Shown: positions 1-19,512, counted from the stretch's first letter. The stretch: DNA of 64,000 nt from Flavobacteriales bacterium (GCA_046294625.1 JBKBKN010000002.1:24250-88249); one strand, 5' to 3'. Translations and numbers: made by a program. The notes: generated by a model not told the origin, from the sequence alone.

Positions 1-3000
1 GGAATCAATACATCTGTAGTTGGTGTTGGAACAGTTCCGCAACCCCAGTTGGCAGGTGTATCCCAATCGGTGCCTGCACCCAGCCATTGACCAGGGAATT
101 CAACATTGAGCAATGATGCATCTGAAGTTGTTGAAGCCGGACAAACGCTGCTGTTCACAATCACACGATACAAGTATCCATTAAGGGCCGAACTTGCAGT
201 GAAGGATAAATTATCTGTATTGCTTCCGCTGTAAGTAGGTGCGGTAGCATTGTTCCAAGTGCTGCCATTGTCGGTTGAAAACTGCCATTGATAAGTCAAT
301 CCCAATCCGGAAACATTCACATCAATATTTACTAAAGATCCAGTACACACCGTTTGCTCATCAACCGGTTGCGCATCGATAAATGCAACACCAATAATAA
401 GCGTACCTTCATTAGAAATCAACTCTTCGCCGCAGGCATCAGTGATGATTAAACGATACTTATTCCCATTCAAGTTTGGCGGCGGAATATTGCTAAAGCT
501 CAGCAAATTGGTAGTTGCTCCACTGTATGGTGCAACATTCAATACGTCACTCCAACTAGTGCCACCGTCTGTACTTTCCTGCCACTGATAGGTTAATCCA
601 ACACCTGTAGCAGTTACAGAGAAATTAGTATTGCCACTGCAAATGGAGTTGATAAAGGTAATAGGGCTGTATCCCGTGATTTGAATTCCGGGAACTAAGG
701 TAAGCAATACCGCATTCGTTTGGCCATTGCCGCAGGCATTATTGGCCTGCAGTCGGTATTGATTGTTATTCATGCCCGAACTCACTGCGCTAATGTTGAG
801 CGTGTTGGTATTCACACCTGAATAGATACCGGCATTGCTCAGGTTGCTCCAGGTGGCACCTCCGTCGGTACTTTCCTGCCACTGAAAATTAATTGGATTA
901 AGACCAATTACAGTAGCGGTAAATGTTGCCGGTGCATTAGGGCAAATATCTAATTGATCTACCGGCTGCACGGTGACAATCGGTTGCAGACAGGAATTGA
1001 ACTCATCGGCACCAAAATCAGGCGCAAAAGGATCGCGTGGATCTCCATCTATATCATCAATCACAGATGCAAGCGGGGTGCCTTTGTTATCAATGAAATC
1101 AGATGCAGCCGGATTGGCGCTGGAAATACGCAGGTTGCCGAAGAGGAAGTCTGTTTCAAACAAATCTTCGGGATTCAATTGTGTATTGGCAATAGTAGTC
1201 GCCGCTACAGGCACGTAGTCGCTATTTGCATCGCCGCCAGAAGTGGTACGCCAGTTCGCAAAGGTCAAGTCAGTAGTGCCCCAGCGAGTAGCAACAGCTG
1301 AATTTAACGTAGCTACGAAATTGTAGTTCGATGCGCTACTGTTCCATCCGGTGGCAGGCACACTGGCATTGATATTTCCAATAGCGCGGTGCGAACCAAT
1401 GCCCGTTCTTCCATTGATAAAAATATTATTGCGCAAAGTTACCGGAGCCCCAGCTACCGTGCCGGTATTATTAGGAATACGCACATAACAATAACTTGGA
1501 TTGGCACCGCCTGCACCGCCATTTGTGCCATAGATGTAAACCGAATTGTAGAGATAATTAGCTCCCTGTCCGGTGAGGTTGCGCAAATGGTCTCGAATAC
1601 CATTTACCAAGGTGTTTCTAAAATCAATGTGCGTGCCGGTGGTGCCATTACGCAATGAAATCATGTTGTTAGACACTTCCCAGTTGCCATAATTCAGCAC
1701 CAGGCCGTTCACTTCAGGCGCATTGTTGGGCGAAGCTTGCCCTACATTGGCATTGGCTAAGGCGGCTATGGTATTTTTTCTGAAAATACCTCCGTGATTT
1801 TGCGCCTGGCCTAAAATACCCAGCATCGCGCCATGATTTCTCACGTTGGCGTTTGCTACAGCATTCAATTCATTGTTCTGAATCAGGTTGCCTTCCACCA
1901 GATTATTCATGGAATTGGTGTGCAGAAACAGGCTAATCATGCCTTCGTTAGATACCGCAGAATTTTGCAAGTTGCTAGAAGAGCGGTTGTTGGCAATCAC
2001 ATTGTTGCGAATGGTAGCTCCACCGCCTGGCGCATTGAACAATACATCGTTGAAGTACAAATTACTGCCATGCACAATACCATCGAGGAAACAGAAGGTA
2101 CCCAATCCGGTAGATAAGCCACTCACGATATTGTTTTCAATTACCACTTCTTCGGCCGATTGGGTCCAGATGCCCATCACAGCCGCATCTTGAGTTATAA
2201 ACGAGCCTCCGCTTCCGTTACTGATAATATTTTCCTGCGAATTATCCTCTGAACCAATCACATTACCCACTTCATCACCAATGCGCACTCTACCGTTTTG
2301 TACACGCATACCCACAAAATTAGTCCAACCGGTGCCTGAGATATTGAAGTTTTGAATTTTATTGCCTTGAATAGACAAAGCTTCGGCTTGCGTAGGCGAA
2401 TTACCCACATTGGCAAAAATCGCCACTACTTCGCCATCCACTTTATTATTCTCCCAGGTTCCTGTTATTTCAGGATTTGGCTTAGCACTTCCGCCGATTT
2501 TGTTACCGGAAATCACATGCCCGTTGGTTGTTCCATTGGCGTCGAGCACGATCGGATACTGATAGGTAGGTATCGTAAGTGTTTGATAAATGTTGTTGTT
2601 GGTAATGCTGATGTTGTTGCCAATGCTATTTGCTGCTGTTCCACCATTATCAGCTCGTATAGCTGAAGCCTGGAAGTTGAACATATCATTACCGGTAATG
2701 GTAATGTTGTTGATGTTGGCACTATTGTTTGCCCCACCCAAATAAATTAGGTTCATAGGCACATTGGTAAGAGTCGGTGTCACATTGCTCAGGTTGCGGA
2801 TTTCGTTGTCCTGAATGGTGATGTTGTTCAGGTTGCCGCTGGCAAAGCCCATACTGCCGCCGATGCGTACTACTCCCACGCTACCTGTGGTATTGTTGGA
2901 GTTGTTGATGTTGGCACCTTCGATGATGCAGCTGCGCAACACGTTGTTGTTCGCACCATTGTTATATTCCACAGTAGATGCATAAATCGAAGTCACCCTA

Positions 3001-6000
3001 TTGTGGCGCAAACGAAGGAATCTTCCATCACCATCAAAGCGACCATCAATAATTACCCTTCTTGCACCCAAGAAGCTAAACATGGCATTGGCAGCAAATG
3101 AGTTTGCTTCAACTGTATAAAGTGTAGGTGCATTCGGTCTGATAGTAATGGTGTAACCTGAGCCGCAGAATTCCTGAGGGGCATTCAATGGCGTCCAGTT
3201 GGCTGTTTCGTTGATATTCGAAATCACCAATACTTCCAAATCGCCGCTCAAACCGCGGGTATTGATGGCATGGAACAAACCTCCCGGATTCAGGTTGAAG
3301 CTGGGGAAATCACCGCCGGAACCTACCGTTACCGTACCACTCAAAGGATTGCTAAAGCTAAAGCTCGACGGTGCAGCAGGGTGGGTTACCGGATTGTTTA
3401 CGTTGTTATTGGTAAACGACACATTCGCATCGAAATGGCTTAATCCTAAGTTCGGGTTCACCGGATTAGTAGCCAAGTCTTGCGCTACAATGTAGTACTG
3501 ATAAGTTTCACCACCCACAGGGGTAATGGACAACAACGAGTAATCCAGTTCAAATTGCCAGTTGCCATTGAATTGGTTGCCTGAAACGAGCGTACCCGGC
3601 ACACTGGCCCATGCACTGATAGTAGGTGCACTGCGGCGGAAGTAAGCTCTTGGTCGATTCGCTCCTGTAGTAGGCACTCCAGCACCCCCATCGAAAATGG
3701 TGGCATCGAGCAAGGTGGTCACAGGGGTGGAACAAATCGCCGCACCCGATATAGGGGTAAAGGTAATTTGCGGCGGGAAGATATCGGTGCTCGGCACAAT
3801 GGCATTGAAGTTGGCCGCATCGGCTCCTATATCGGCCGGAGTGAAGTCGGCGCGGATTTCACCATCGAAATCTTCCACTACAGAAGCAATCAACACGCCC
3901 GAGCCTTCGGCAGGATTGCTGGCTTGCAAGTGCAGGTCAACTTGTGAAGCATTGCCTGTCGGATTCACAAAATTCGGATTGCCCACGCCGGACGTGATTT
4001 CAATGCCCTGCGTCAATAAGCCGAGGAAATTGAGCGGAGTGGTTCCGCCATTCACGCTTCCGATAGAACCGCCTGTTCCCGGAGAAAACAAGATGTTGAA
4101 ACCGCCGGTGTAAGTAGTCGTTGCATTGAGCGTCAGTGAATAATGAAGGCCTCCGGTGGTGGCATTGCTGCGGGCGTTGAGGAAAATGTTGTTGCGCACA
4201 TTATCAATACCAGTTGCTGTTCTGCGGAAAGCAAAAGTATTGGCAGCTCCCGAAACCACATTGGCTCCGCCGATATACACACTGTTGTGCCAGATGTTGT
4301 GGTTGTTTGCAGTTTCTTTCAAGATACCTTGAATGACGCGTGCGGCTGTGATGCTGTTACCGGCGGCATCAATGCCTAATCGCACCATGTTGTTGGTCAC
4401 GGTGGTTAATCCGCCGCCCAGCACGATACCATTCAACTGCAGGGCAGTGCTTGAGCTGGTGGCATTCAGGCTGTGTACAAAGTTACCATCCACCAAATTG
4501 GTGCCCGAAGTAGGCCCGTTGTAATAAATACCAGTTACAGTGGCTGCGGCTGATGCGTTGGTGTGAGTCAAGCCATATACAGTATTGCCTTTGAGTGTTT
4601 GTCCGGCCGAAGTGGAGCGGTGAGAGATACCAATTAATGCAGCTACTGCGCCCGTTTGTGCGTAAGGACTGGAAGTACTCAGACTATGCACCACATTGTT
4701 TTGAATCACGTTGTTGGCTGCTGCCGCACTCACTCTTTCAATACCTATAACACTGAAGGCATTGGTAGCTGAAGATGAAGTACCATTGGCCGTATAGTGA
4801 ATGTTGTTCACCAAATTGTTGCTCACTGTTGTAGGCCTTGCATTAGACACATGAATACCGGCTATGGTAGCGCCATTAGTAGCATTGAAGGTATTTCCGG
4901 TAGCATTGGTTAAGGGGGCATCTGCACTACCAATGGTATTGCCCGTTACAGTGATACTTTGCGAGATAGTAGAAGAACCTACCCTGATGCCATACATATT
5001 CACAATGTTGGCACTCGAGGTGGTATTGGATAGGTTAATGCCGCCGATGGTATTGTTTAGCACATTGATGGCTGCATTGCCACTATGGAAAATACCATGC
5101 ACATTGGTGAATTGTCCGGCACTGCAGGCGATGGTAATGCTGCCTGCATGCGTAAGGCTACCGATGGTATTGTTGCGAATTTCATATTCACCATTACTTC
5201 CCAAAATGCCCGTGAAGGTGGAGCCTTGGGTTTGGAAGCCAGTACCTGTGGTGATATTGAAATTACGAATCACATTATTTTCTACCACATTGCCCGCGGT
5301 AATGCCGGTGGACATGGAAATGGCCGAGAAGCGATAATCCTGTCCCGAAGCATTTACCTGCCAGGTGCCAATGGCATTGTCACTATTACCGCCAATGAAA
5401 TTATTGGTTACTACCATGTTGGCTGCGTTACCCGTGGCTGCACTCACCAAAATACCATACTTATCCGAAGTAGTAGTATGGGTGGCGGTCATGTAAATAT
5501 GGTTATCGCTGATGGTGTAATCGGAGTTGTGCGAATCAATATACACCGCGGCATGCGAACTGGTGGATGCCAAGTGGTAATTGTAGAAATGGTTTTGGCT
5601 GATGGTGACATTGTCATTCACGCGGGTGCTGGTACCGGCTGCATAAATCCCCGACGATGGTTGACCGGCTAAGTTGGTCAGGTTGCGGATGTGATTGTGC
5701 GAAATGGTGATAAAATCGTTTCCGCTGCCACTGGCCGATGCCGTAGAAATGCGAACGGCACCGTTGAGCGTACCTTGCGTACCTGCTTCAATATTTGCAT
5801 TGCGAATGGTGATGTTTTTCGCATCGTTAATCAAAGTAAAAGTGGAATTGAAGTTAGAAGCCGTAGTACTGTTGTTTCTGAACGTAAGGTGGCGTCCGCC
5901 CGCTGCTAAGTTGGAAGGATCGCGTCCATCAACAATAAAGCGGTCGGCACCGTTTATCCTGATCAAGCCAGCTACCGCAGCATTAGCACCCACATAATTG

Positions 6001-9000
6001 CCTTCAATCAAACGATCGGAATTGTTACTTGGGCGAAGCGTGAGCGTGTAGTTTCCTACACCAATTTCGGCCCATTCGTTCAGGGCATGTGTGCCTGATT
6101 CTGCCGTGAGATCGCTGATAATAGTAGCTGTAACGTTCCCGCTCAATGTAGCTTGGTTCACAATATCAAACAATCCACCGGGATTGGTGATGGATGGGAA
6201 TACCCCACCGTTACCCACAGTGTAGTCTCCATTGAGAATGAGTGGAGCTGTCATCAAGCAGGTTGGCGGTGGGCCACCAAACATCGAAACATTGTCCAGC
6301 TTCACGCTAAACAGGTTGCTGTTGTTGTAGCCATTGCGTGGCTCGGCATAAAAGAAGATGGCTGATTTATCCACCACCGATGAGATATCGAAGGTCACTT
6401 CTAGATTCACGCAGTTGCGCAGCTCGTTGAAAGGAATGAACCGGCCATTGATATCGGTTTGGCTCACTTCTACCCCATTGATTTTGATGGATGTGCAAGC
6501 GCCGTTTACAAATTGATTGTCGGCCCACATGTAAAAGCGCATTCTGTCCAAAGGCTGTGAAACAAAAAAGGAATGCGACACATCGAGGAACATTTTCATG
6601 CTGGTGTTTCCGGTGCAATTCACCAAAGGCGTACGCAAGAAACAGCTGAAGAAATTGGTGAAGGTACCCGAGCGGCCCACATGGCCATCGGGACAACCAT
6701 CAGTAGCCGAATACAATAAACCACCTGTGGTGCAAGTAGAAGGCGACCAGAAGACATTGGATGGGCCTGTAGGGCCAACTGTACTAAAGTTGGCATTGTT
6801 GGTGAATGGCTCCACCGGCAATACATTACCCCCAAGACCTTCGCGCACATCGCCATCATTGTTGCGGGCACGTGCATAGAAACAATACTCTGTATTGGCC
6901 TGCAAACCGATGATAGTAGTAGTACCCCATGCAGCCATGGTTTGGAACACTTCCGTAGCTCCTAAGCTTCCATCGGCTTGCACGAATTGGTTGGTCGCCG
7001 GGCTAAAGATGGAGTAAGTGGTTGTAGCCGGATTGGCCGTTGGCGTTTCCGGTTGCAAGCTTACATCCATGGTAAATGGGGTAGCATTGCTTAGCACCAC
7101 CGGAGCCGGCGCATCAGCCGCTGTATGAATCGGGAATGTTGATCCATTGGTCCAGTTGCAAGAAGTTGGCCCAAATACACTGCGCACACGATAATAGAAA
7201 GGTGCATTGGGTGAATCGCCGGTATTGTGCGAGAAGGAAGTATTCAATCCGGTGTATAAGCTGTTCCACGTAAGGTTATTTGTCGAAAACTCTACTTCAT
7301 AAGCAGTTACCCCGGCCACGCTCGACCAGTTGAGCTCGATAAAATGCGATGGGCCATTGGCTGGATTGCCAATTGTAGGCGTGAGCGTGGTAGGTGAGTT
7401 TTGTACCTGCACATTCACAGCGCTTGGTAAACTTTTAATACAATCAGGCTGTGTGCTGCAGCGGGCATTCACGGTATAAGTGGTGTTAGCCATCGGTGCA
7501 TTGAAATTGATGTTTTCATAAGCACTGTTGAATACCGGCGTAGCCAAAGCAAATGCTGTTCCGTTCCAGAACAAGCTGCCATTGCTCCAGGAATATTCCC
7601 AAGTGCCGGAGCATCCTGAACCTCCACTTGGATTTGCCGCTAAAGTCACCGCTGAACCATTGCATACGGTAATGCTTGATGGTGTGGCATTGGCAGTGGC
7701 TGAAAGCGTTGGCCCGTTGCCGGCAATAAAGTTACCGGAGTGCGCACCAATATCAGTCGGTGTGAGTGTGCTGCGGTCGTTGCCGTCGAAGTCAATGTTG
7801 ATGGCCAGAGATGTTCCGTTACCTTCGGCAGCGCTGTATTGCGTGGTGGAAATGCGCAAATTCACATTGGCCGAATTGCCGTCGGCATTGATGAAGGATG
7901 GGTCGCAAGCCAAACTATTGGCATCCTGATTGGTGGCCGTTTGCCAATTGAGCAAAGTAGCATAATCAGTAGTGGCTATGAATCCGGTGAAACCGCCCGT
8001 GCCACCGGCATTCAGAATATTGAAATTGGAATTGTTGGCAGGGCTGGTAAAGTTGGTCACACTGTTAGCCGAAATAGCATAATGCTTCCCGGTGCCCGAA
8101 ACATTGGAGCGAGAATTGTTGAAAATGTTGTTCTTGATGTCGAGCGCAGCCGTATTAGCCTGACGAGAGAAGGCTATCGAATTGCCCGAACCGGAAGTGG
8201 TGCTTCCACCAATATGCACGGAGTTGAAGTAATATTGATGTCCGGCAGTGGCAGAATGATGCGAGAAACCAATGATAAATGGACTATTGGCCACACTGTT
8301 GCCGTTCACATCTATCCCCAAACGAATCATATTGTTGTGATACGTGGCCACCCCGGTCAGGGCCATCACACCCATTAAGCTGGCCGATGAATTAGTGCTT
8401 GGCGTATTGAAACTATGGATAAGGTTGCGCGAAACTTCGTTGGTTCCTGTGGCATTTCTAAACAGAATACCCAATGCCTGAGTAGCCGCAGTAGTGGAGC
8501 TATTTTCCAAGCCATAAATGGTATTTTGCGAGATCAACTGTCCGGCGCTGTTGCTGCCCTGATTAATTCCTATCAAAGTGGCTGTGAGCCCCGAACCAGC
8601 CGAAGTGGAATTGTTCACCAGCGAGTGAAGGGTATTGCCCGTAACGCTGCTTACCCCCCCTGACAGGTTGATTCCTATCAGTTGGTAAGTCGTGGTAGAG
8701 CCGGTGTAAGCTAAAGTAAGGTTGCGAATGGTATTGTTGCTGATGGTCGTATTTCCGGCCACTTGCGAAATACCAATCAATGAAGTGGCTCCGGCTGTCG
8801 TGAGCGTTTGCATATTTGAAATGGTGTTTCCGCTCACCGTAGCATTTCCCGAAGTAATATAAATACCATGGATCACATTGGCATTAGTGGTTTGGTTTTC
8901 GGTCACGCTGATCAGGTCAATCAGGTTGTTGGAGATGGTATTGGCAGCGCCTACCGAATTAATACCGGCAAAAGCAATGGCATTGGCTGCCGTGCCTCTC

Positions 9001-12000
9001 GACAGATTAATTCGGCGAATGGTATTGCCGCTCACTACAGAATTGCTCGAAGCTGCATTGGGATTCAGGAAAATTGCCTGATAAGATTGATTCACCGCGC
9101 CGGTAATGGTCATGTCCGTACCGCTGGAGTTGGCTTGCGTGCCTCCGATATGGTTATCACTGATGGTGTAGTTATCGCCGGTATTGTTCACCTGAATCCC
9201 GTATTTAATCACAGCTCCGGTACCAGTACGATCGGCATTTTGGTAAATGGAGTTGCCGGTGATGGTCCAAGCAGAATTGTTGGTGCTTACCCATATGGCG
9301 CTCGAAGTCTGATTAGGACTCCAAATATTGAAAAGTTCATTTTCCAGAATGGAAATATTGTCGTTTTCACGCGTAGCGGTACCCAAAGCAAAAATTCCGT
9401 TTGCGGGAAGGCCTGCCGATTCTTTAATATGGTTGTTGCGAATGGTGATGTTGTCATTACCATTGCCTGCTCCGGCGGTGCCAATGCGAATTACTCCATT
9501 GGTAGCGCTGGTTGAGGCACCTTCTATAATACTGTTGCGCAAAGTGTGATTGGTCGCATCGTTGATGTAAAGGAAGGTGGCATTAAAGTCCGAAGCATTG
9601 GTATTGTTGTTTACAAAACGTAGGTGGCGACCATTGGCAGCCATATTGTTGGGGTCGCGACCATCAATCACTACCCTATCTGCACCATCGAAACGGAACA
9701 AGCCCGCCACAGCGGAATTTGCCCCAATATAGTTGCCCGAAATGGTTCGGGCGGTATTGTTGCTTGGACGAATGGTGAGGGTATAATTGCCCGCACCCAA
9801 TTCTACCCATTCGTTTAGGGCATGCAAGCCGGATTCGGCTGTAAGGTCAGAAATGATCTCTGCCACCAAATTGCCTGATAATGCAGCATTGTTGATGGAT
9901 TGAAATAAGCCACCAGCATTGGTAATAGAAGGATAGGTTCCACCTGAACCTACGGTTACCACACCTGACAAAACATTAATCAAATAGCTGTTGATGCTGC
10001 CAGTGGCCGGGAAATTGGCAGCAGTGAGCACCACTGAATTAGGCGTAGTATTGAAAGTGGCAGCATTCACAGCAAAATTGGGCGTTGCAGCCACATCTTG
10101 CGCTACCACAAAATATTGTATGGTTTCCCCACCGCTTACCCCACCGCCAAACAGCAAAGTGTAATTGATGCTGAAATCAAACGGAGAAGTAGATGAGGAA
10201 GACTCTATAAACTTCCAGCCATTGGTGGCCGAAGTATTATCCACAAAAGTATTGGCATCGGTGCTGCGTTTGTAGTAAATTCGAGGCGCCAGACCCGGTG
10301 TAGTTTCCACCGCAATGTTATCGGTAATGGTAGCCGAGAAAGGGGGTGGCGTCAATACGGTTTGCGTGCCAATGGGGGTGTAGGTAATCACGGGAGGCGT
10401 AAAGTCAAGTCCGCCGAAATTGTTTTCATCAGCGCCGATGTCAGGAGCTGTACCTGTGCCCGCATAGCCTACCCCGCCAAAGCGAACATCGCCGTCGTAG
10501 TCAATGTAGATATTCACATCCACCCCGCCGCTTTCGGCCTGTGTCGGAATAGCAGTATCCAGACGAAGATTCACTAAAGTAGCATTGCCAGTGGCATTGA
10601 GGAAAGGTGGATTTTCGTTAAACGAGTTGGCATCTAATCCGCTCAACTGCCAATCGGCAATGGTGGTGCGTTGAGTAGCCACCTGCAAGCCCACATGGCC
10701 GCCTGTGCCTCCGGCAAACAAGATGTTGTTGGTAGAAGTTACTCCGGCAATGGAATTAGTTAAGCCAATGGCATAGTGCGCTCCGGTGCCTGCCCCATTG
10801 CTGCGGTTGTTCACAAAAATATTGTTGCGCAACACAGTGGCGGCTGTTCCTGCTGTTTTACCGAAGGCAAATGTATTATTGGCATTGGCTACACCTGTTC
10901 CACCCACAAATACTGAGTTGAAGAAGTAGCTGATGTTGGCTGTGGTAGAAAGGTGATGAATACCGTAGGTGAGCAAACCTTGCGTCACACTATTGCCATC
11001 GCCATCAATGCCCATACGAATTTTGTTATTGCTAATGGTGGCTTGCCCGGCAATGAAATGAATACCGCGAATCACCGCGGTGGTGCCGGTGGTGGCGCTG
11101 GATAAACTATGCACAAAATTATTCGAAATATCGTGAATAGGCGTTGTTCCGGCAGAAAACACAATACCGCTGATATTCACTGCCGCCGTGCCGGTGGTGG
11201 TGCTGCGCAAGTTAAATACGGTATTGCCTCTAATGATTTGAGGCGATGTCGTAGTGCTGCTAATGTCGGCAATACCCACCAAGGCCGCATTTGCATTGGT
11301 AGAAGTAATGGTGGTGGTTGCCGAAAGATTACTGATAGTGTTATTGGTGATTACATTGATTCCTGTGGTGCTTGTGGCAATACCACGCATGTAGGTAAGC
11401 CCCAAATTGCCTGAATAAACATTGCTGATGTTGTTGATGGTATTGCCATCTGCAATTGCATTGCCTGATGAACCAAGAAATATACCGGTAAAGCCTACAG
11501 CACCGCCTGCACCGGTAAATGAAATACCTGAAATGGTATTATTTAAAATGGTGTCGATGCCGGCGGTGATTTGAATACCAAATGCCTGGCTGGCCGTGGT
11601 GGTGTTCCAGTTGCTGGCTATACTGATGCTACCGGCTGCCCCACCGATGATATTGTTCTCTATATTGTTGTTACCCGCATCGCTTTTTATACCAGCAAAA
11701 AGTATGGCATTGGCAGCTGCACCATGTGCGAAATTCAGGTTGCGAATGGTATTGTTTTCTACTATACAATTAATAGCAGCATTGGCCGGATTCAATTGAA
11801 TACCAATGAACGATTGATTTACATTACCGAGAATTGTCCATGGCGAACCGGCTGAAAGCGCTTCGCTGCCACCAATGTGGTTATTACGCAGGATAAAATT
11901 ATCGCCGGTGGTATTAGTTACTTGAATACCGTATCGAGCTACTGCCCCTGTTCCGGTTCTGGAAAAGGTTTGATAAAAGCTATTATTCTCAATGGTCCAG

Positions 12001-15000
12001 GCAGAATTAAATCCTGCGACAAAGATTCCGTTGTTGCTCACCCCCGGTTGCCAGAAATTGAAAATTTCGCAGTTGCTAACGGTAATGTTATCGTTTTCAC
12101 GACCAGTGGTGCCTAAAGCATAAATACCATTGGCAGGAGTTCCTGCTGCATCGCTGCGGTCGCGGATGTAGCAATTGTCTATGGTGATAAAATCATTACC
12201 CGAACCGGTAGCCAAAGCGGTACTGAAGCGAATTACCCCGTTGGTGGCACTGGCAGTAGCGCCTTCGGCGATAATATAGCGCATGGTGTGGTTTTGGGCA
12301 TCATTTACATAGTTGAAAGTTCCTGCCCATGCCCCTGTATTGATATTTCTAAAGGTCAAGTGACGGCCACCCGCTGCCTGATTGGCCGGATCACGCCCGT
12401 CAATAATCACGCGGTCGGCTCCATCGAAGCGAATCAAGCTTGAATTAAGCGCCGTAGTCCCGGTATAAGTTCCTGAAACCAAACGGTTGGTATTGTTATT
12501 GGGGCGAATGGTAAGGGTGTAATTGCCCGAGCCAATCTCTAACCACTGGTTTAGAGCATGTGTCCCACTTTCTGCTGTCAGGTCAGAAATGATTTCGGCA
12601 ATCAGATCGCCGCTCAAAGCTCCGGTATTGATGGCTTCAAACAATCCACCGTTGTTTGTGAGTGACGGATACATCCCTGATGTTCCAACTGTTACCACAC
12701 CCGACAATACATTAATGAAATAGCTATTGATGGTGCCGGTAAGCGGGAAGGCAGCGGCAGTAAATGCCACGCTCGAAGGTGCCGCATTAAAAGTGCCACT
12801 GTTGATACCCACATTAGGCACCGGTGCGATGTCCTGCGCTACCACAAAATATTCGATGGTTTCGCCTCCTGAAGGTACTCCACCAAAAAGTAAGCTGTAG
12901 TCAATGTTGAAGGTAAAGGGTGAAGACGCCCCTGTGGCTTCTACCCATTTCCAGCCATTGGTGGCCGATGTGTTGTTCACGAAGGTGTTGGCATTGCCTA
13001 AATATTTGTAATACAGGCGAGGACGTGTGCCACTGCTGCCGTTCACCCCGCTGATGTCGGTGATGGTGGCTGTGAGCGATGGAGGCGTGAGCACCGTTTG
13101 CGTAGGAATAGGAGTATAATTGATGTTGGGTGGGGTGAGGTCGGCCGGAATAAAGTTACCTTCGTCAGCGCCCACATCAGGTGCTGTACCTTCTATATCG
13201 CCTACAATGGGATAGGGCCCGCGGGCATCGCCATCAATGTCTATGCTCACCGATGCAATCACCGTTCCTGCGCTCTCTATCTGGGCCGGAACAGCTGAGT
13301 CTATGCGCAAATTCACCTGCGAAGCATCGCCCAATGCATTAACAAAGGGCACCGGACCATAGATAGAATTGGCATCGTTGCCAAACACATTTTGCCAATC
13401 GCCAAGGCCGGGATATTGCGTAGTGGCAATGATCCCCACTCTACCATTTTGCCCATCAGCCTTGTAGAGGTTAAAATTACTTATCACTCCGGCGCTGGTG
13501 CTTAAGCCCATGGCAAAATGCTCTCCGGTTCCCGAGGTTTGCGCGCGGTCATTGATGAAAATATTGTTGCGAACGTCCAATGCCGAAGTGCCTGCCAATC
13601 GGTTGAAGGCAAAGGTATTGGTCGTACCCGAAGCTACTTCGCCGGCGAGCAATACGGTATTGTAATAGTACTGATTGTTGGCAGTAGTAGAAGAATGGCG
13701 AATTCCCATGATGCTTATGGGATTGGTAATAGCATTTCCATCGCTGCTCAAGCCTAAGCGAATCATATTGTTGTGGTATGTAGCCATCCCTGATAGTGCA
13801 TTGATACCCAATTGCGCCGCAGCCGCATTGTTAGAAGCTGTATTAAAGCTATGGATGGTATTACGGCTTATAGCATTAGCACCAGAAGTGGGACCGGTAT
13901 AGTGAATGCCGATAATGCTGTTGGCCACTGTAGTGTTTGTAGTCGAAAGTGTATGAATTATGTTTTGACTGATGTTTTGCCCTGGTAGAGTGCGCTGAAA
14001 TTGAATACCGATATTAACCGAATTGGCATCTATCCCAGTGGAAGCACTCGCAACGCTCAAACTAAAAATGGTGTTTCCGGTTATAGTGAATCCACCTGCT
14101 GCTGATGCGTTGGTGGCAATGCCACGAATATTGCTGGCAGCAACAGCCGAAACCGCGTTATTAGTAAGGTTGGCAATGGTGTTATTGCTGATGGTATGTG
14201 CAGTACTTGCTGCCGTACTTAAGTAATTGATCCCATTCAAAAATTGACCTGAGCCATTGGTGCTGGCCGTGATGCAGTGAATGCTATTGGCCAAAGTGCT
14301 ACTGCCTATGGTGTTTTCGTTCACAGTGCAAATCCCCCCTGAAATCAATATCCCATTGAAACTATGCCCTACACCAGCTACCGAGCCCGCCAGAGTAATT
14401 CCAGAAATCGTATTTCGTTCGATGGTACTGTTGCCTGCTAAATTGATGATGCCATTGGATGTGGATGGAGTGGTAGCAAAATTTTCTGTATTGGTAATAT
14501 TGCCATTAGCAGAAGTAGAGCCGATAAGGTTATCAGCAATCAAACCCGCCCCGTTGGCATTTCTAATACCTACAAAGGATACAGCTGTAGAACTCGTGCC
14601 TCGGGAGAAACTGATGTTCGCCACCACATTGCTGTCCACTACGCATCCTGTGGCAGTGGTAGCGGGATTTAAGTCTACTCCAAAAAAGGTACCCGCCCCA
14701 ACACCCGTGTAGGTTAAAGCTGCACCGGCAGCTAATGGCTCCGAACCCCCAATATAGTTGTGGCGCACCGTGAAGTTATCGCCGGTGTTGGAGATGGAAA
14801 CAGCTGTATGAGTAAATGTGGTTCCATTAGCTCGGCTCACGGTTTGATAGAAGCTGTTGCGTTCTATAGTCCAGCCGGTACTGTTGGCTCCGATACTCAC
14901 CCCTGAATGGGTAGATGCCGCATTCACATAGTAGTTTCTGATGTTATTCCAGCGAATTATATTGTTCTCATTCAAGGCGCCTGCTGTTCCAGATGAGTGA

Positions 15001-17888
15001 ATTCCATTAGCCGGAGTGGCATTGTTAGCCGTATTCTCGCGGATTTCGCAGAATTCAATAAGGTTTTCACTATTGCCCCCTAGTAAGGTGGTGGAAGTGC
15101 TGAATAAGATGGTTCCGCTGGTGGTAAGTGTATTCTGACTTTCAATGTTCAGGTAGCGCAACACATTCGCAGTGGCGCCGTTGATAAAGCGAAAAGTGGG
15201 GTCGAAAGTTGCCGTAGACCGGGCATTTCTAAAGCCCCACTGAATAGGGCCGCTGCCGCCAGCACGGCCATCGAATGTCAATCGGTCTATGCCGTTTAAG
15301 TTAATCAACGCGCTTGTTGTAGAAGGTATTCCGGCTGTTAACAGGTTTACGCTACCGGCCGCAGGACGAATCGTCACCGTATGCGCAGGGCCATTGGTGG
15401 TGAATTCGGTAAAATTAACCGGATAGGCCGGTTCGCCGCTGTAAGTGGTAGGTAATTCGAAAATTACGTTTCCGGTTACCAATTGGATGCGGAGTAAATC
15501 GGCAATTACTGTAAGGTTTAAGGCCGGAACTACACCGCTCAAAGTGCTTGATGTGCCGATGGTGTAAAAGGCATTCTGATTGGTGTTGTCAATGGTATTG
15601 CTAAGCACCGAAGTGATGCTAGCTCCGATGTTCGTTCCCCCTTGGTTGGCGTAAGCGCCGGTGATGGTATTGGAATAGCCCACACGCGAATCGCTCAGCA
15701 ATCCGGCAATTTCCAACTCCACGGTGTAATTCACAGGGTTGGTGCCGGCCATGCGCTCCACGCGCCAATGATAGGGTTGAATCGAAGATAATCCACCGCC
15801 AGCTGAGCCTCCCGGAGCGGCATTAACATGTTGCACGCGCAATTGCACGCCCGAAGCCGCTGCAGACGTAATCATGCTATAGCCGCCAAATTGTGCTCCA
15901 TCCCCAACCGGAAAACGGTAGGTGCCCACCGCATTGATAGCTCTGGTCAGGGGGCCATTCACATAGCTCGTAGCATCACCACCAATAATAGCGGTTGCAG
16001 GTGTAGCGTTTAAAACACTCAATACATTAGTGGTGGTGGTGGTAAGAATACCGGACGTTAAGGTTAAAATTCCATTGGCAGGCAAATCGCGTGCAGCATG
16101 CAGCGTGACTCCATTGGGATTGTTGATGGTTAACCTTCTTGGACCATTTGTGGCAGGAAATTCATTGTTAGCAGAAGTTTGAGCTGCAATACCTTCATAA
16201 GTCAAAGTACTTGCTGTAGCATTTGTAAAAGATAAGGTATTTGCCACCCTTCCGCTTCTGATGCGCACATTCACGCCATTGCCACTTAAGGTGGGATTAG
16301 TGAAGGTCAATTCATCCGTATCATTCACCAAATCAAGCAAAATAAAACCTGTTGTAGCCGCCGGTTGGCCATTACCGGTTACTTGGCCGTTGGTGCCGGT
16401 GTAAATAAGATTAATACCTGCATTGTATGTTCTCGTGCCTGTACTTTGAATATTGCCCGTTGCACCGGTGGTGGTGATTCCATCCTGAGAGCCCAAACTC
16501 AATGTTGAGCCCGCTACTGTGGTAAAGTTGCCGGTATTATTTAATACACCGCTGGGACCAAAAATGGCATGAGCAGTGGCATTCATGGCTACGGGTGCGG
16601 TAAACGTTAAAGTGTTGTTTCCAAAATTAACCGTTGAGCCTGTGATGTTGACGTTAGAAAAAGTTCCTAAAATATCAGCCTTGGCCGCATTGTAGGTGGT
16701 ATTGCCATTGAGAAAGATGAAATTTCTATTGCCGGTGGCTGTGGTACTGTTGATTTGCCCAGTAAAATTGCCCGTTTGGGTAAAATTGCCCGAAAGATTG
16801 ATTACTTCCGTTTGAGTGGTTAATCCACCACGGTACTGAATAATGTTAGTATGCACATTGTTCTGTGCCAGAATGATTTCCAAGTTACCATTTATGGAAA
16901 GGGTATTCGTGAATGCGGTTGTGTTTTGTGTGTAGGCCGGACTGTTTAAAATAAGCTGAGCATTGGCATTTGATGTATTGTTAACGGTCACGTTATTGAC
17001 GGTAAGGATTTGAGTTGCAGCGAGCGTACCTTTAGTCGCAAAACGCCCGCCGGTAATGATTAGATCACCCGTATTGCCTGTGGTCCAATTACGTGTACCA
17101 AAATTATTACCTACAATTTGATTATTTGTATTTCTAAATTCAAAAGAATTTACTGAAATCGGAAAGGTCGCTAAATTGATTTGCGTGCTTTGTGCAGGGC
17201 AATCCCAAACTACTTTACCAAAGTTTTGATTCAAACCCGCAGGAATTCCTGTAGTAACTCCGGTAATATTAAGGTTTGACTCTACACTCCAGTTGGCTGT
17301 AGGTACCGTTAAGGCTGTGGCGCTGTTATAAGTGTAAGTAGCATTGTCTTCAAAGACTAAAGTAGCCACAGAGCCATTTATGGCACCACCAAAATGATTT
17401 ATCACCCCGGATGCAGACACCGTAACTATTGTTGAACCTACCGCAGTGGTCGTAAATGCACCTGCCCTTACAGTCAAAGTCCCTGAAATAAGTCCCCGCT
17501 GATTGGCAGTGGTAGCTATAGTGATGGTCAGTGCATTTGTGGCTGATGTTTGTAATGTTGATCCAGCTTCAACCAAGAAATTGTCATCGAAACCTGGACC
17601 ATTAATGGTTAAAGTGGTGGTCCCAGAAGAGGTCAAGGTAACGTTGGTATTGTTAGTCACCAAAAGTTGCCGTATCGTTTGCGTTGGAACTGCAGTGACT
17701 ACATGTGTGCCTCCATCATTGAATCGGAGAATATCCGTCGCAGCAGGAGTAGTTCGGTTAGGCGACCAATTAGCTGCTACTGCCCAAGAGCCGTTGCCTC
17801 CGTTCCAAGTGTAGGTGGTTTGGGCATGGATAGACAGTGAAAAAAAAACAAAAATTGAAAATACTACAAAGCGTATTGTTAGGTGCAT
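1..17888 (-). CDS. Giant secreted cell-surface protein, N-terminal ~5,962 aa (3' end beyond the window): signal peptide, 5 parallel beta-helix (PbH1-like) super-modules each ending in D[IF]GA[DH]E (choice-of-anchor-Q-like), Ig-like linkers, and 3 C-proximal Ig-like repeats. Probable adhesin / T9SS-type cargo; the C-terminal domain is not in the window.
   Basis: The minus-strand frame is open from the ATG (complement of 'cat' at 17886-17888) to position 3, with a partial codon at 1-2. The ORF track lists no minus-strand ORF fragment in this frame, consistent with there being no in-window stop. The translation starts MHLTIRFVVFSIFVFFSLSIHAQTTYTWNGGNGSWAVAANWSPNRTTPAATDILRF... and keeps a sensible repetitive domain composition throughout. 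Recurrent motifs: GNYTLTIRP (5 times), DGRDPxNxAAxGRHL, NNTI(S/R)N.., DIGADE / DIGAHS / DFGADE, TPPxIxYTPI..QTVLTPP, YQWQESTDGGxxW. Confidence 0.9.
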   Translation of the reverse strand, partial: MHLTIRFVVFSIFVFFSLSIHAQTTYTWNGGNGSWAVAANWSPNRTTPAATDILRFNDGGTHVVTAVPTQTIRQLLVTNNTNVTLTSSGTTTLTINGPGFDDNFLVEAGSTLQTSATNALTITIATTANQRGLISGTLTVRAGAFTTTAVGSTIVTVSASGVINHFGGAINGSVATLVFEDNATYTYNSATALTVPTANWSVESNLNITGVTTGIPAGLNQNFGKVVWDCPAQSTQINLATFPISVNSFEFRNTNNQIVGNNFGTRNWTTGNTGDLIITGGRFATKGTLAATQILTVNNVTVNNTSNANAQLILNSPAYTQNTTAFTNTLSINGNLEIILAQNNVHTNIIQYRGGLTTQTEVINLSGNFTQTGNFTGQINSTTATGNRNFIFLNGNTTYNAAKADILGTFSNVNITGSTVNFGNNTLTFTAPVAMNATAHAIFGPSGVLNNTGNFTTVAGSTLSLGSQDGITTTGATGNIQSTGTRTYNAGINLIYTGTNGQVTGNGQPAATTGFILLDLVNDTDELTFTNPTLSGNGVNVRIRSGRVANTLSFTNATASTLTYEGIAAQTSANNEFPATNGPRRLTINNPNGVTLHAARDLPANGILTLTSGILTTTTTNVLSVLNATPATAIIGGDATSYVNGPLTRAINAVGTYRFPVGDGAQFGGYSMITSAAASGVQLRVQHVNAAPGGSAGGGLSSIQPYHWRVERMAGTNPVNYTVELEIAGLLSDSRVGYSNTITGAYANQGGTNIGASITSVLSNTIDNTNQNAFYTIGTSSTLSGVVPALNLTVIADLLRIQLVTGNVIFELPTTYSGEPAYPVNFTEFTTNGPAHTVTIRPAAGSVNLLTAGIPSTTSALINLNGIDRLTFDGRAGGSGPIQWGFRNARSTATFDPTFRFINGATANVLRYLNIESQNTLTTSGTILFSTSTTLLGGNSENLIEFCEIRENTANNATPANGIHSSGTAGALNENNIIRWNNIRNYYVNAASTHSGVSIGANSTGWTIERNSFYQTVSRANGTTFTHTAVSISNTGDNFTVRHNYIGGSEPLAAGAALTYTGVGAGTFFGVDLNPATTATGCVVDSNVVANISFSRGTSSTAVSFVGIRNANGAGLIADNLIGSTSANGNITNTENFATTPSTSNGIINLAGNSTIERNTISGITLAGSVAGVGHSFNGILISGGICTVNENTIGSSTLANSIHCITASTNGSGQFLNGINYLSTAASTAHTISNNTIANLTNNAVSAVAASNIRGIATNASAAGGFTITGNTIFSLSVASASTGIDANSVNIGIQFQRTLPGQNISQNIIHTLSTTNTTVANSIIGIHYTGPTSGANAISRNTIHSFNTASNNAAAAQLGINALSGMATYHNNMIRLGLSSDGNAITNPISIMGIRHSSTTANNQYYYNTVLLAGEVASGTTNTFAFNRLAGTSALDVRNNIFINDRAQTSGTGEHFAMGLSTSAGVISNFNLYKADGQNGRVGIIATTQYPGLGDWQNVFGNDANSIYGPVPFVNALGDASQVNLRIDSAVPAQIESAGTVIASVSIDIDGDARGPYPIVGDIEGTAPDVGADEGNFIPADLTPPNINYTPIPTQTVLTPPSLTATITDISGVNGSSGTRPRLYYKYLGNANTFVNNTSATNGWKWVEATGASSPFTFNIDYSLLFGGVPSGGETIEYFVVAQDIAPVPNVGINSGTFNAAPSSVAFTAAAFPLTGTINSYFINVLSGVVTVGTSGMYPSLTNNGGLFEAINTGALSGDLIAEIISDLTAESGTHALNQWLEIGSGNYTLTIRPNNNTNRLVSGTYTGTTALNSSLIRFDGADRVIIDGRDPANQAAGGRHLTFRNINTGAWAGTFNYVNDAQNHTMRYIIAEGATASATNGVIRFSTALATGSGNDFITIDNCYIRDRSDAAGTPANGIYALGTTGRENDNITVSNCEIFNFWQPGVSNNGIFVAGFNSAWTIENNSFYQTFSRTGTGAVARYGIQVTNTTGDNFILRNNHIGGSEALSAGSPWTILGNVNQSFIGIQLNPANAAINCIVENNTIRNLNFAHGAAANAILFAGIKSDAGNNNIENNIIGGAAGSISIASNWNTTTASQAFGIQITAGIDTILNNTISGISFTGAGGAVGFTGIFLGSSGNAIADGNTINNISNVYSGNLGLTYMRGIATSTTGINVITNNTISNLSATTTITSTNANAALVGIADISSTTTSPQIIRGNTVFNLRSTTTGTAAVNISGIVFSAGTTPIHDISNNFVHSLSSATTGTTAVIRGIHFIAGQATISNNKIRMGIDGDGNSVTQGLLTYGIHHLSTTANISYFFNSVFVGGTGVANANNTFAFGKTAGTAATVLRNNIFVNNRSNGAGTGAHYAIGLTNSIAGVTSTNNILFAGGTGGHVGLQVATQRTTIADWQLSGLDANSFNENPPFLNATGNATLVNLRLDTAIPTQAESGGVDVNIYIDYDGDVRFGGVGYAGTGTAPDIGADENNFGGLDFTPPVITYTPIGTQTVLTPPPFSATITDNIAVETTPGLAPRIYYKRSTDANTFVDNTSATNGWKFIESSSSTSPFDFSINYTLLFGGGVSGGETIQYFVVAQDVAATPNFAVNAATFNTTPNSVVLTAANFPATGSINSYLINVLSGVVTVGSGGTYPSITNAGGLFQSINNAALSGNLVAEIISDLTAESGLHALNEWVELGAGNYTLTIRPSNNTARTISGNYIGANSAVAGLFRFDGADRVVIDGRDPNNMAANGRHLRFVNNNTNASDFNATFLYINDATNHTLRNSIIEGASTSATNGVIRIGTAGAGNGNDNITIRNNHIKESAGLPANGIFALGTATRENDNISILENELFNIWSPNQTSSAIWVSTNNSAWTITGNSIYQNADRTGTGAVIKYGIQVNNTGDNYTISDNHIGGTQANSSGTDMTITGAVNQSYQAIFLNPNAASSNSVVSGNTIRRINLSRGTAANAIAFAGINSVGAANTISNNLIDLISVTENQTTNANVIHGIYITSGNATVSGNTISNMQTLTTAGATSLIGISQVAGNTTISNNTIRNLTLAYTGSTTTYQLIGINLSGGVSSVTGNTLHSLVNNSTSAGSGLTATLIGINQGSNSAGQLISQNTIYGLENSSTTAATQALGILFRNATGTNEVSRNLIHSFNTPSTNSSASLMGVMALTGVATYHNNMIRLGIDVNGNSVANSPFIIGFSHHSATAGHQYYFNSVHIGGSTTSGSGNSIAFSRQANTAALDIKNNIFNNSRSNVSGTGKHYAISANSVTNFTSPANNSNFNILNAGGTGGFTGFIATTDYATLLNWQTATNQDANSLACDPSFINADGNSANVNLRISTTQYSAAEGNGTSLAINIDFDGNDRSTLTPTDIGAHSGNFIAGNGPTLSATANATPSSITVCNGSAVTLAANPSGGSGCSGTWEYSWSNGSLFWNGTAFALATPVFNSAYENINFNAPMANTTYTVNARCSTQPDCIKSLPSAVNVQVQNSPTTLTPTIGNPANGPSHFIELNWSSVAGVTAYEVEFSTNNLTWNSLYTGLNTSFSHNTGDSPNAPFYYRVRSVFGPTSCNWTNGSTFPIHTAADAPAPVVLSNATPFTMDVSLQPETPTANPATTTYSIFSPATNQFVQADGSLGATEVFQTMAAWGTTTIIGLQANTEYCFYARARNNDGDVREGLGGNVLPVEPFTNNANFSTVGPTGPSNVFWSPSTCTTGGLLYSATDGCPDGHVGRSGTFTNFFSCFLRTPLVNCTGNTSMKMFLDVSHSFFVSQPLDRMRFYMWADNQFVNGACTSIKINGVEVSQTDINGRFIPFNELRNCVNLEVTFDISSVVDKSAIFFYAEPRNGYNNSNLFSVKLDNVSMFGGPPPTCLMTAPLILNGDYTVGNGGVFPSITNPGGLFDIVNQATLSGNVTATIISDLTAESGTHALNEWAEIGVGNYTLTLRPSNNSDRLIEGNYVGANAAVAGLIRINGADRFIVDGRDPSNLAAGGRHLTFRNNSTTASNFNSTFTLINDAKNITIRNANIEAGTQGTLNGAVRISTASASGSGNDFITISHNHIRNLTNLAGQPSSGIYAAGTSTRVNDNVTISQNHFYNYHLASTSSHAAVYIDSHNSDYTISDNHIYMTATHTTTSDKYGILVSAATGNAANMVVTNNFIGGNSDNAIGTWQVNASGQDYRFSAISMSTGITAGNVVENNVIRNFNITTGTGFQTQGSTFTGILGSNGEYEIRNNTIGSLTHAGSITIACSAGQFTNVHGIFHSGNAAINVLNNTIGGINLSNTTSSANIVNMYGIRVGSSTISQSITVTGNTIGSADAPLTNATGNTFNATNGATIAGIHVSNARPTTVSNNLVNNIHYTANGTSSSATNAFSVIGIERVSAAAANNVIQNNVVHSLSTSSPYAQTGAVAALIGISHRSTSAGQTLKGNTVYGLTHTNASAAATVTGIYYNGPTSGTNLVDGNFVHSLNATSSSTALQLNGIVLGGGLTTVTNNMVRLGIDAAGNSITAARVIQGILKETANNHNIWHNSVYIGGANVVSGAANTFAFRRTATGIDNVRNNIFLNARSNATTGGLHYSLTLNATTTYTGGFNILFSPGTGGSIGSVNGGTTPLNFLGLLTQGIEITSGVGNPNFVNPTGNASQVDLHLQASNPAEGSGVLIASVVEDFDGEIRADFTPADIGADAANFNAIVPSTDIFPPQITFTPISGAAICSTPVTTLLDATIFDGGAGVPTTGANRPRAYFRRSAPTISAWASVPGTLVSGNQFNGNWQFELDYSLLSITPVGGETYQYYIVAQDLATNPVNPNLGLSHFDANVSFTNNNVNNPVTHPAAPSSFSFSNPLSGTVTVGSGGDFPSFNLNPGGLFHAINTRGLSGDLEVLVISNINETANWTPLNAPQEFCGSGYTITIRPNAPTLYTVEANSFAANAMFSFLGARRVIIDGRFDGDGRFLRLRHNRVTSIYASTVEYNNGANNNVLRSCIIEGANINNSNNTTGSVGVVRIGGSMGFASGNLNNITIQDNEIRNLSNVTPTLTNVPMNLIYLGGANNSANINNITITGNDMFNFQASAIRADNGGTAANSIGNNISITNNNIYQTLTIPTYQYPIVLDANGTTNGHVISGNKIGGSAKPNPEITGTWENNKVDGEVVAIFANVGNSPTQAEALSIQGNKIQNFNISGTGWTNFVGMRVQNGRVRIGDEVGNVIGSEDNSQENIISNGSGGSFITQDAAVMGIWTQSAEEVVIENNIVSGLSTGLGTFCFLDGIVHGSNLYFNDVLFNAPGGGATIRNNVIANNRSSSNLQNSAVSNEGMISLFLHTNSMNNLVEGNLIQNNELNAVANANVRNHGAMLGILGQAQNHGGIFRKNTIAALANANVGQASPNNAPEVNGLVLNYGNWEVSNNMISLRNGTTGTHIDFRNTLVNGIRDHLRNLTGQGANYLYNSVYIYGTNGGAGGANPSYCYVRIPNNTGTVAGAPVTLRNNIFINGRTGIGSHRAIGNINASVPATGWNSSASNYNFVATLNSAVATRWGTTDLTFANWRTTSGGDANSDYVPVAATTIANTQLNPEDLFETDFLFGNLRISSANPAASDFIDNKGTPLASVIDDIDGDPRDPFAPDFGADEFNSCLQPIVTVQPVDQLDICPNAPATFTATVIGLNPINFQWQESTDGGATWSNLSNAGIYSGVNTNTLNISAVSSGMNNNQYRLQANNACGNGQTNAVLLTLVPGIQITGYSPITFINSICSGNTNFSVTATGVGLTYQWQESTDGGTSWSDVLNVAPYSGATTNLLSFSNIPPPNLNGNKYRLIITDACGEELISNEGTLIIGVAFIDAQPVDEQTVCTGSLVNIDVNVSGLGLTYQWQFSTDNGSTWNNATAPTYSGSNTDNLSFTASSALNGYLYRVIVNSSVCPASTTSDASLLNVEFPGQWLGAGTDWDTPANWGCGTVPTPTTDVLI
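100..985 (-). repeat. Three tandem ~290-nt (~97-aa) Ig-like domain repeats at the C-proximal end of the in-window part of the giant protein.
   Basis: Translations: ...INFQWQESTDGGATWSNLSNAGIYSGVNTNTLNISAVSSGMNNNQYRLQANNACGNG..., ...TYQWQESTDGGTSWSDVLNVAPYSGATTNLLSFSN...GNKYRLIITDACGEE..., ...TYQWQFSTDNGSTWNNATAPTYSGSNTDNLSFTASSALNGYLYRVIVNSSVCPAS... The period is ~290 nt (plus-strand landmarks at ~870, ~585, ~285). Confidence 0.65.
1015..13180 (-). repeat. Four tandem in-frame super-repeats (~2.7-3.9 kb each) inside the giant gene, diverged. Approximate module spans: 1015-3830, 3830-7750, 7750-10440, 10440-13180. A fifth, more divergent module lies at ~13180-16000.
   Basis: The same conserved stretches recur at ~3140-3350, ~6030-6130, ~9770-9860 and ~12500-12600 (e.g. 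ggtaagggtgtaattgcccgagccaatctct... vs ggtgagggtataattgcccgcacccaattct...). By eye, 9541-10400 and 12241-13100 are ~75-80% identical. The protein-level TLTIRP and D-I-G-A-D-E landmarks recur with the same spacing. Confidence 0.75.
17840..17848 (-). repeat. Homopolymeric tract: A9 on the plus strand, which is T9 on the coding strand, within signal-peptide codons ~16-20 of the giant gene.
   Basis: Plus strand ...agtga aaaaaaaa ca aaaattg... Coding strand TTT GTT TTT TTT TCA (F V F F S). Confidence 0.8.
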
Positions 17889-17913
17889 ACTTAAGTTTTT
17901 AACAAAAAGGTCA

Positions 17914-19487: not shown

Positions 19488-19512
19488 TTAGGTTTTACTT
19501 AAAGAGAGCTAG

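Follow-up and report, generated by a model that had tools for sequence, protein, structure and literature searches.

A giant protein and its described counterparts

SprB of Flavobacterium johnsoniae and other giant adhesins are among the closest described counterparts of the protein presented here. They are established as surface proteins of a similar size class that have a repetitive build, reach the surface by way of T9SS (type IX secretion system), and probably follow the same logic of an extender plus a tip. The protein is encoded at positions 1 to 17888, on the minus strand, of a 64,000-nucleotide stretch of DNA from a Flavobacteriales bacterium (GCA_046294625.1 JBKBKN010000002.1:24250-88249), referred to below as the window. 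SprB consists of short repeats and carries a type B sorting domain, whereas the giant protein is built from a unit of a ~750-amino-acid (aa) β-helix plus an immunoglobulin-like (Ig-like) connector, and its relatives end in a type A sorting domain. In Porphyromonas gingivalis, PorU cleaves the C-terminal domain of type A cargo, and the new C terminus is linked to anionic lipopolysaccharide (A-LPS; PMC5445135).

Other described proteins resemble individual parts of the giant. The solved right-handed β-helices, such as those of polysaccharide lyase family 6 (PL6; 7dmk and 8bwk), the HK620 tailspike, PfbA (4mr0), and AlgE6, share its fold class, and no common catalytic motif has been identified. 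Stand-alone T9SS type A cargo proteins of Bacteroidota, Ignavibacteria, and Kapabacteria contain one module, followed by other domains and the sorting domain, whereas the giant chains five modules; these proteins are labeled “hypothetical,” “beta strand repeat-containing,” or “T9SS type A sorting domain-containing” protein. The Ig-like (IgSF) domain of P. gingivalis PPAD and of gingipain-type T9SS cargo is located C-terminal to a functional domain, as is the connector of the giant; however, the connector joins two modules, whereas that of PPAD precedes the sorting domain. The broad class of T9SS-exported β-helical surface proteins is already known, and the giant represents a new variant of it.

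The reading that we favor, and consider probable without being certain of it, is that the giant is a long nonenzymatic surface fiber or adhesin that is attached to the cell at its C terminus, places its N-terminal region and module 1 distally, and is a block-wise mosaic. This reading is suggested by the concatenation of rigid rods with Ig-like spacers, by the invariant residues, which are Asn and Gly positions of the ladder, with charged ones in the caps or just upstream of the tail, by the lack of any signature of a carbohydrate-active enzyme at any threshold, and by a block-wise variability that is typical of exposed surfaces. The predicted protein would form a segmented rod that consists of a 766-aa N-terminal region, five capped β-helix modules, Ig-like connectors, an insert, and three Ig-like repeats.

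The gene and its modules

Stop counts per frame show that positions 1 to 17888 form one stop-free minus-strand frame, which runs from an ATG at 17888 to the window edge. The same frame contains 2 stops in 18 kb, both upstream of 17888, and an in-frame TAA sits 30 nucleotides (nt) before the ATG. The resulting open reading frame (ORF; 1..17888) comprises at least 5,962 codons and continues past the left edge of the window, so that its 3' end is missing. For this reason, it is absent from the ORF listing of positions 1 to 17888, which includes nothing longer than 215 aa. The collinear orthologue L002, found by a genome-collection scan in the metagenome-assembled genome “Bacteroidia bacterium SJ364,” extends ~480 aa past the edge. 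By orthology, the window is expected to hold about 93% of one chromosomal gene, and the full-length protein would comprise about 6,440 aa.

All features of the protein described below are encoded on the minus strand. The translation is composed of 12.4% Asn, 12.1% Thr, 10.7% Gly, and only 0.5% Lys. On inspection, its N terminus, MHLTIRFVVFSIFVFFSLSIHA followed by QTT, reads as a Sec-type signal peptide that ends before the Gln (17820..17888), as expected of T9SS cargo. The 766-aa N-terminal region that comes next (aa 24 to 789; 15522..17819) is 63% identical to that of P0123, one of the related giant proteins, and has no sequence match in Pfam, NCBIfam, or PDB. It is presumed to form the distal tip of the fiber. 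It opens with the motif T-Y-T-W-x-G-G-x-G-x-W-x-x-A-x-N-W, which recurs at aa ~5941 (GQWLGAGTDWDTPANW), at the start of another region. This start of the C-terminal region (3..83) is collinear with L002 and with the relative P0122, both of which end in a Por_Secre_tail domain.

Between these ends, BLASTP comparisons of tiles of the protein with the protein itself reveal five collinear modules, with heads that start at aa ~790, 1728, 2640, 3885, and 4849; self-comparison of the whole protein gave the self-match alone. A hidden Markov model (HMM) of the head finds exactly five heads, and there are five copies of the tail motif D[IVF]GA[DH][ESA], at aa 1571, 2483, 3379, 4686, and 5624. The modules are 745 to 807 aa long and recur with a period of ~0.9 to 1.25 kaa. 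In all five, the same order is kept, with a conserved head of ~136 aa, an Asn-rich ladder body, and a tail of the form D-x-D-G-x-x-R...D[IVF]GA[DH]. The tandem ~1-kaa super-modules proposed in the initial annotation of this DNA are thereby borne out, with several corrections. The range proposed for them, 1015 to 13180, agrees with the span from the module 5 tail (1002-1019) to the module 1 tail (13161-13178) but leaves out module 1 itself (13161-15521), and the conserved head, put at ~180 aa, measures ~136 to 140 aa. Likewise, an Ig-like linker had been ascribed to every module. Linkers of ~150 aa with the pattern TPPxIxYTPI...PRxYYK...NGWKW are present only after modules 1, 2, and 4; module 3 is followed by a different insert of ~500 aa, and module 5 by three Ig-like repeats of ~95 aa.

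Module 1 (aa 790 to 1576; 13161..15521) has a divergent head (15114-15521) and the tail DVGADE. It is connected to module 2 (aa 1728 to 2488; 10425..12707; head, 12300-12707; tail, DIGADE) by Ig-like connector 1 (aa 1577 to 1727; 12708..13160), which belongs to the same family as connector 2 (aa 2489 to 2639; 9972..10424). The latter leads to module 3 (aa 2640 to 3384; 7737..9971; head, 9564-9971; tail, DIGAHS). The ~500-aa insert (aa 3385 to 3884; 6237..7736) consists of a Cys-rich Ig-like part, an fn3-like part (24.6 bits, just short of the Pfam cutoff of 25), and a ~190-aa Cys-containing domain without a family assignment. From aa ~3517 onward, few parts of the protein are better conserved than the insert (76% identity to P0122 and 67% to L002), and it may represent a ligand-binding unit. 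Module 4 (aa 3885 to 4691; 3816..6236; head, 5829-6236; tail, DIGADA) precedes the divergent Ig-like connector 4 (aa 4692 to 4848; 3345..3815). Module 5 (aa 4849 to 5629; 1002..3344) again has a divergent head (2937-3344), with the tail DFGADE. The three C-terminal Ig-like repeats (aa 5630 to 5935; 84..1001) are 38 to 49% similar to one another, contain a Cys pair each, and show weak matches to CHB_HEX_C, I-set, Ig_7, and PKD_6. Within them lies the one near-identical repeat that the gene has at the DNA level, 27 nt at 93% identity (562-588 versus 859-885).

The heads of modules 2 to 4 are 62 to 68% identical to each other, 41 to 47% identical to that of module 5, and 24 to 33% identical to that of module 1. 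The bodies of modules 1 to 4 are 35 to 46% identical to one another. Head conservation exceeds that of these four bodies but not that of the module 5 body.

AlphaFold2 was run on module 3 (756 residues) with a 70-sequence alignment that had been reduced from 111 sequences. The model has a mean predicted local distance difference test score (pLDDT) of 93.6 and a predicted template modeling score (pTM) of 0.94; it is nearly all β, with a short helix at residues 22 to 27. In Foldseek searches against PDB, the top matches are all right-handed parallel β-helix proteins, namely PL6 alginate lyases, the HK620 and CBA120 tailspikes, the lacto-N-biosidase LnbX, the adhesin PfbA, DFA-IIIase, and AlgE6, at ~10% identity and template modeling (TM) scores of 0.15 to 0.45. 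The proposed β-helical nature of the body is supported at this level. The whole module, including head, body, and tail, is modeled as one rigid right-handed β-helix. Because the pTM is very high and the head of stand-alone homologues directly follows the signal peptide, the head would correspond to the N-terminal cap with the first helix turns, and the tail to the C-terminal cap. The suggestion that the head might be a separable binding or recognition domain is not supported by this model; from the pTM, the secondary structure, and its position, the head is probably an N-terminal cap. Ladder motifs recur every ~31 to 39 aa in the modules. As a rough estimate, a module would have ~22 turns and a length of ~11 nm, and a length of the order of 100 nm would result for the complete protein.

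Linker 2 (aa 2489 to 2639) is predicted to be a β-sandwich (pLDDT of 81 and pTM of 0.79, confident in only the best of 5 models). In Foldseek, PPAD, a T9SS cargo, provides the top match with its Ig-like domain (TM, ~0.5; root mean square deviation, 3.8 Å; 12 to 13% identity), and further matches include Ldt Ig-like, cadherin, and FN3 domains (E values from 7e-3 upward). The linker has no sequence-family match, and its Ig-like character is upheld at the level of the fold.

Scanned as halves, modules, heads, and tails at E values of up to 10, the modules have no family match in Pfam or NCBIfam; a single noise-level match in six module segments was seen in Pfam at this threshold. PF13229 (Beta_helix), PF07602 (DUF1565), and the NosD-type repeats give no match on the five modules even at an E value of ≤10, and PF13229 is precomputed for 2 of the 120 homologues listed in the protein search described below. 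The tails had been compared to choice-of-anchor Q and DUF1565-type caps. The choice-of-anchor Q proteins share a D-x-D-G-x-x-R...D-I-G-A-x-E-like cap after a β-helix; however, all five tails of the giant are below the 25-bit cutoff of NF041518, with one of them reaching 13.9 bits (E value, 0.05), and the half-proteins have no match to it. The likeness amounts to a loose similarity of motif, not to membership. A profile of the module family finds one marginal match among PDB sequences, 9rx2, a “parallel beta-helix repeat protein” (E value, 0.003), and PDB sequence and profile searches with the insert, the linker, and the N terminus returned nothing useful. In total, neither Pfam nor NCBIfam recognizes ~4,900 of the 5,962 residues, namely, those of the five modules, the three connectors, and the N-terminal region. 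No description of the module family was found in the literature on T9SS β-helix cargo, choice-of-anchor domains, and SprB or right-handed helices.

T9SS commonly exports glycan-degrading enzymes. The best Foldseek neighbors of the module (PL6 alginate lyases, the HK620 and CBA120 tailspikes, lacto-N-biosidase, DFA-IIIase, and AlgE6) suggest the main rival to the fiber reading, in which the giant is a cell-anchored array of carbohydrate-active enzymes, each module being a lyase, hydrolase, or epimerase with its own specificity, as in a multi-tailspike phage. The divergent bodies would then act on different substrates, and the distinct body types described below would fit distinct specificities. 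This explanation seems unlikely. Structural matches at ~10% identity and TM scores of 0.15 to 0.45 indicate the fold class only, and no lyase or hydrolase family match is found in Pfam, NCBIfam, or PDB sequences even at an E value of ≤10; HMMs of polysaccharide lyase and glycoside hydrolase families (PL1, PL6, PL9, GH28, etc.) do not match the modules. In the alignment columns, the central body contains no conserved acidic or basic cluster. The family-invariant residues are almost all Asn and Gly ladder positions, and the conserved charged ones are located in the head (E46 and D103), in the tail (D683, D727, and R733), or just upstream of the tail (R621).

The initial annotation had estimated the DNA identity between copies, by eye, at ~75 to 80% over hundreds of base pairs and had concluded that it could drive recombinational expansion or contraction and collapse short-read assemblies. 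This is an overestimate. The measured identity between modules is 66 to 73% over 250 to 370 bp and rises to 79% only over 112 bp; no exact repeat exceeds 20 nt, and Tandem Repeats Finder (TRF) detects no DNA tandem repeats in the gene. With such values, the modules are not expected to be recombining now or to collapse in assembly. An independent Logan assembly (SRR31360865) is 100% identical over window positions 8063-27808, and the gene call of its contig, which is also cut (5,697 aa), fits collinearity down to window position ~797, within the Ig-like repeats. The gene is a real, correctly assembled, modular giant. It is very improbable that its modules are recombining now and collapsing in short-read assembly, with the array perhaps misassembled, as might be suspected from the tandem homologous modules, from the different module numbers of relatives, and from the near-identical modules of the relative P0191; besides the low DNA identity and the agreement of the assemblies, the frame is intact over 17.9 kb. 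Expansion and contraction remain a valid description of the evolutionary history, as relatives have 2 to 7 modules, but not of the present sequence, in which the DNA identity is too low. In P0191 (6,424 aa), with its seven nearly identical modules, repeat collapse or recombination would be a genuine concern. The lesson for genome scanning is that ORF lists miss ORFs that run off the window and that DNA identity judged by eye came out too high.

Relatives and mosaic structure

A search of a word-indexed protein database with module 3 yields 285 relatives, the best of which are 34 to 37% identical; nearly all are unnamed proteins of ~1,000 to 1,300 aa, many of them with PF18962. Among the best 120 of the 285, none is longer than 1,321 aa; since many homologous giants are present in the representative library, this does not indicate that long relatives are absent. 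Stand-alone homologues match the module from head to tail, with 30 to 37% identity at 95 to 100% coverage. The start of the head lines up with their residue ~25, immediately behind the signal peptide, and the match ends near residue ~880, which indicates that the repeated unit corresponds to the mature body of a stand-alone T9SS cargo protein. The giants are chains of this body of the widespread ~1,000- to 1,300-aa cargo. The Ig-like connector is missing from 108 of the 120 listed short homologues. In most of the 12 short matches that do have a linker, a head follows ~140 to 160 aa downstream, and for this reason they are read as fragments of multimodule proteins. A search with the linker itself in the same database returned 8 fragments only. 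The connector thus belongs specifically to inter-module junctions.

An exhaustive profile search of public data with the five heads recovers 1,580 cluster representatives, with 1,075 at an E value of ≤1e-10 and 167 at ≤1e-30; the majority are multi-kilodalton proteins that bear the label “hypothetical.” The best 150 of these are mostly 2,000 to 6,400 aa long and contain one head (13 proteins), two (47), three (53), four (28), five (5), six (2), or seven (2). Among the 137 relatives with at least two heads, the commonest case, found in 76, is that the number of linkers equals the number of heads minus one. The linker starts a median of 150 aa before the next head, and the head-to-head period ranges from 479 to 1,492 aa. 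The module grammar is thus a property of the whole family. All named relatives are annotated as “hypothetical protein,” and the family is large, widespread, and not covered by curated databases. P0121 (5,932 aa) has seven modules with a period of ~630 aa, in which the same head and connector are combined with a shorter body of another type. In P0133, ~2,800 aa that resemble the N-terminal-region sequence precede the first head.

The giants P0122, P0123, P0124, and L002, hypothetical proteins from metagenomes and metagenome-assembled genomes, share with the protein encoded here the N-terminal region, the modules, the connectors, the insert, the special last module, the Ig repeats, and the T9SS type A end. 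They differ from it in having 4 modules instead of 5 and other types of middle body, and the identity alternates between 70 to 86% and ~40 to 50%. P0122 (5,533 aa), the nearest of the full-length relatives, contains four modules, with one fewer before the insert. Identity to P0122 is 70 to 95% in module 1 up to aa ~1300 (the first part of the module 1 body is 82% identical), 30 to 50% at aa ~1340 to 3500, 70 to 85% in the insert and head 4 (aa ~3517 to 4000), 22 to 68%, mostly 28 to 50%, in body 4, tail 4, and connector 4 (aa ~4035 to 4870), and 77 to 90% between aa ~4878 and the module 5 end. The steps between these levels are located at aa ~1300 to 1340, ~3517, ~4000 to 4035, and ~4878.

When ~140 giants are compared block by block, the N terminus and module 2 are closest to P0123. 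P0122 is the best match (73 to 82%) in module 1, where this holds for the head and the first part, as well as in most of the insert, in head 4, and in module 5. Linkers 1 and 2 are closest to the P0124 cluster, body 4 to P0133 and the P0124 cluster, and linker 4 to P0217. Body 3 has no relative above 40%. The heads and bodies of the modules of five proteins compared fall into discrete body types. Head 4 is 79% identical to P0122.3, whereas body 4 is just 45% identical to it and 53 to 55% identical to P0133 and P0124 (55% to P0124.3). The module 5 body is 78 to 80% identical to that of P0122 and 63 to 65% identical to that of L002. The body types of the P0122 middle modules are kept at 65 to 69% in the more distant L002 and P0124, which argues that they are not intrinsically fast-evolving; between P0122 and L002, a more distant pair, the corresponding bodies share 65 to 67% identity.

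Measured against its relatives, the giant gene is thus a mosaic, and of the possible origins, block replacement by recombination among homologous giant genes is favored. Modules would have been gained, lost, and replaced block-wise over evolutionary time. A further idea, which is possible if on the doubtful side, is that the modules are exchangeable β-helix cassettes, with the head caps and Ig-like connectors serving as portable joints that allow the homologous genes of different lineages to exchange whole bodies.

The same variability might instead reflect a passive structural coat or spacer, either S-layer-like or a stand-off fiber, that has no specific ligand and in which the middle modules are weakly constrained extenders. 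The bodies of modules 2 to 4 are only 40 to 55% identical to any relative, and the copy number varies; the extender regions of giant RTX adhesins vary in a similar way. This possibility is rather unlikely, since the retention of the same body types at 65 to 69% among P0122, L002, and P0124 points to constraint rather than drift, and specific functions are suggested by the insert, which is conserved, and by the N-terminal region, which is distinct.

Export, anchoring, and surroundings

The C terminus of L002 contains a Por_Secre_tail domain (PF18962; E value, 6.7e-9; 36.4 bits versus a cutoff of 27). In ten related giants, the same domain is found at all ten C termini, in seven of them above the Pfam cutoff. 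None of the ten has a significant type B sorting domain; the sole CHU_C match, at 17.8 bits, is below the cutoff of 27 and secondary to a much stronger Por_Secre_tail match. By orthology, the giant would be handed to T9SS through a type A C-terminal sorting domain located just beyond the window. Export would thus proceed through the Sec pathway by means of the signal peptide and then through T9SS by means of the sorting domain, and the protein would be anchored at its C terminus, with the N-terminal region distal. L002:16631-20240, which lies downstream of the orthologous giant gene, encodes two MacB/FtsX-type permeases and an HlyD-family membrane-fusion protein.

A repetitive surface protein of thousands of residues from a member of the Bacteroidota, with a predicted T9SS dependence and with weak matches to Ig_7 (“CHU_C associated”) in its C-terminal repeats, could also be an SprB-like mobile adhesin of gliding motility that is propelled along the cell surface. 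This is improbable. The SprB repeat family is not detected in the giant protein, its relatives lack the type B (CHU_C/TIGR04131) sorting domain of SprB and end in the type A domain PF18962, and there is no adjacent sprF-like gene, the neighbors being housekeeping genes.

Several points weigh against the reading as a C-terminally attached, nonenzymatic, mosaic fiber. The term “adhesin” derives from the architecture and from the absence of catalytic signatures, and the structural neighbors include enzymes (PL6 lyases, tailspike depolymerases, and LnbX) besides the adhesin PfbA. A conserved groove was judged to be absent on the basis of alignment columns and not of model coordinates, and fiber length and polarity are matters of inference. 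The C terminus of the giant itself lies beyond the window, so that its sorting domain is deduced from those of orthologues. The mosaic pattern could partly stem from differential loss of ancient paralogous modules or from lineage-specific acceleration. Finally, synonymous sites are probably saturated, judging from the equal identity of protein and DNA. The ratio of nonsynonymous to synonymous substitutions (dN/dS) between modules or orthologues was rejected as a measure, given 40 to 80% protein identity, ~70% DNA identity, and this probable saturation.

The rest of the window is ordinary chromosome, with genes for an Endonuclease_NS protein, an aminotransferase, a DUF2141 protein, two SurA-like peptidyl-prolyl isomerases (PPIases), MoxR, topoisomerase IV subunit A, methylmalonyl-CoA mutase, superoxide dismutase, a TonB-dependent receptor, ABC transporters, and YchF. 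The DNA/RNA nonspecific endonuclease is encoded directly upstream of the start of the giant, on the same strand, with the DUF2141 protein and the two PPIases nearby (18063-19286, 21571-22011, 22205-24244, and 25160-26512). The endonuclease, the DUF2141 protein, and the PPIase chaperones are possibly linked to how the giant is exported or folded. Among the 30 ORFs scanned at 18 to 56 kb of the window, there are no T9SS genes and no recombinase or reverse transcriptase, and a search for invertible promoter or regulatory repeats at 17600-18400 gives chance-level matches only. The G+C content of the giant gene (1-16000) is 46 to 50%, versus 39 to 45% at 18000-64000; this may be due to the odd amino acid composition (rich in Asn, Thr, Gly, Ala, and Ser, with 0.5% Lys) or to a foreign origin.

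Three profiles, for the capped β-helix, the inter-module Ig-like connector, and the conserved insert, would annotate a large and abundant class of T9SS cargo in environmental Bacteroidota. If cassette exchange is true, it would resemble the mosaicism of phage tail fibers and tailspikes, and Bacteroidota would vary surface specificity or antigenicity module by module. The mosaicism would then represent a cellular counterpart of the shuffling of phage receptor-binding proteins, as well as a tractable system for the building and T9SS export of long β-solenoid fibers.

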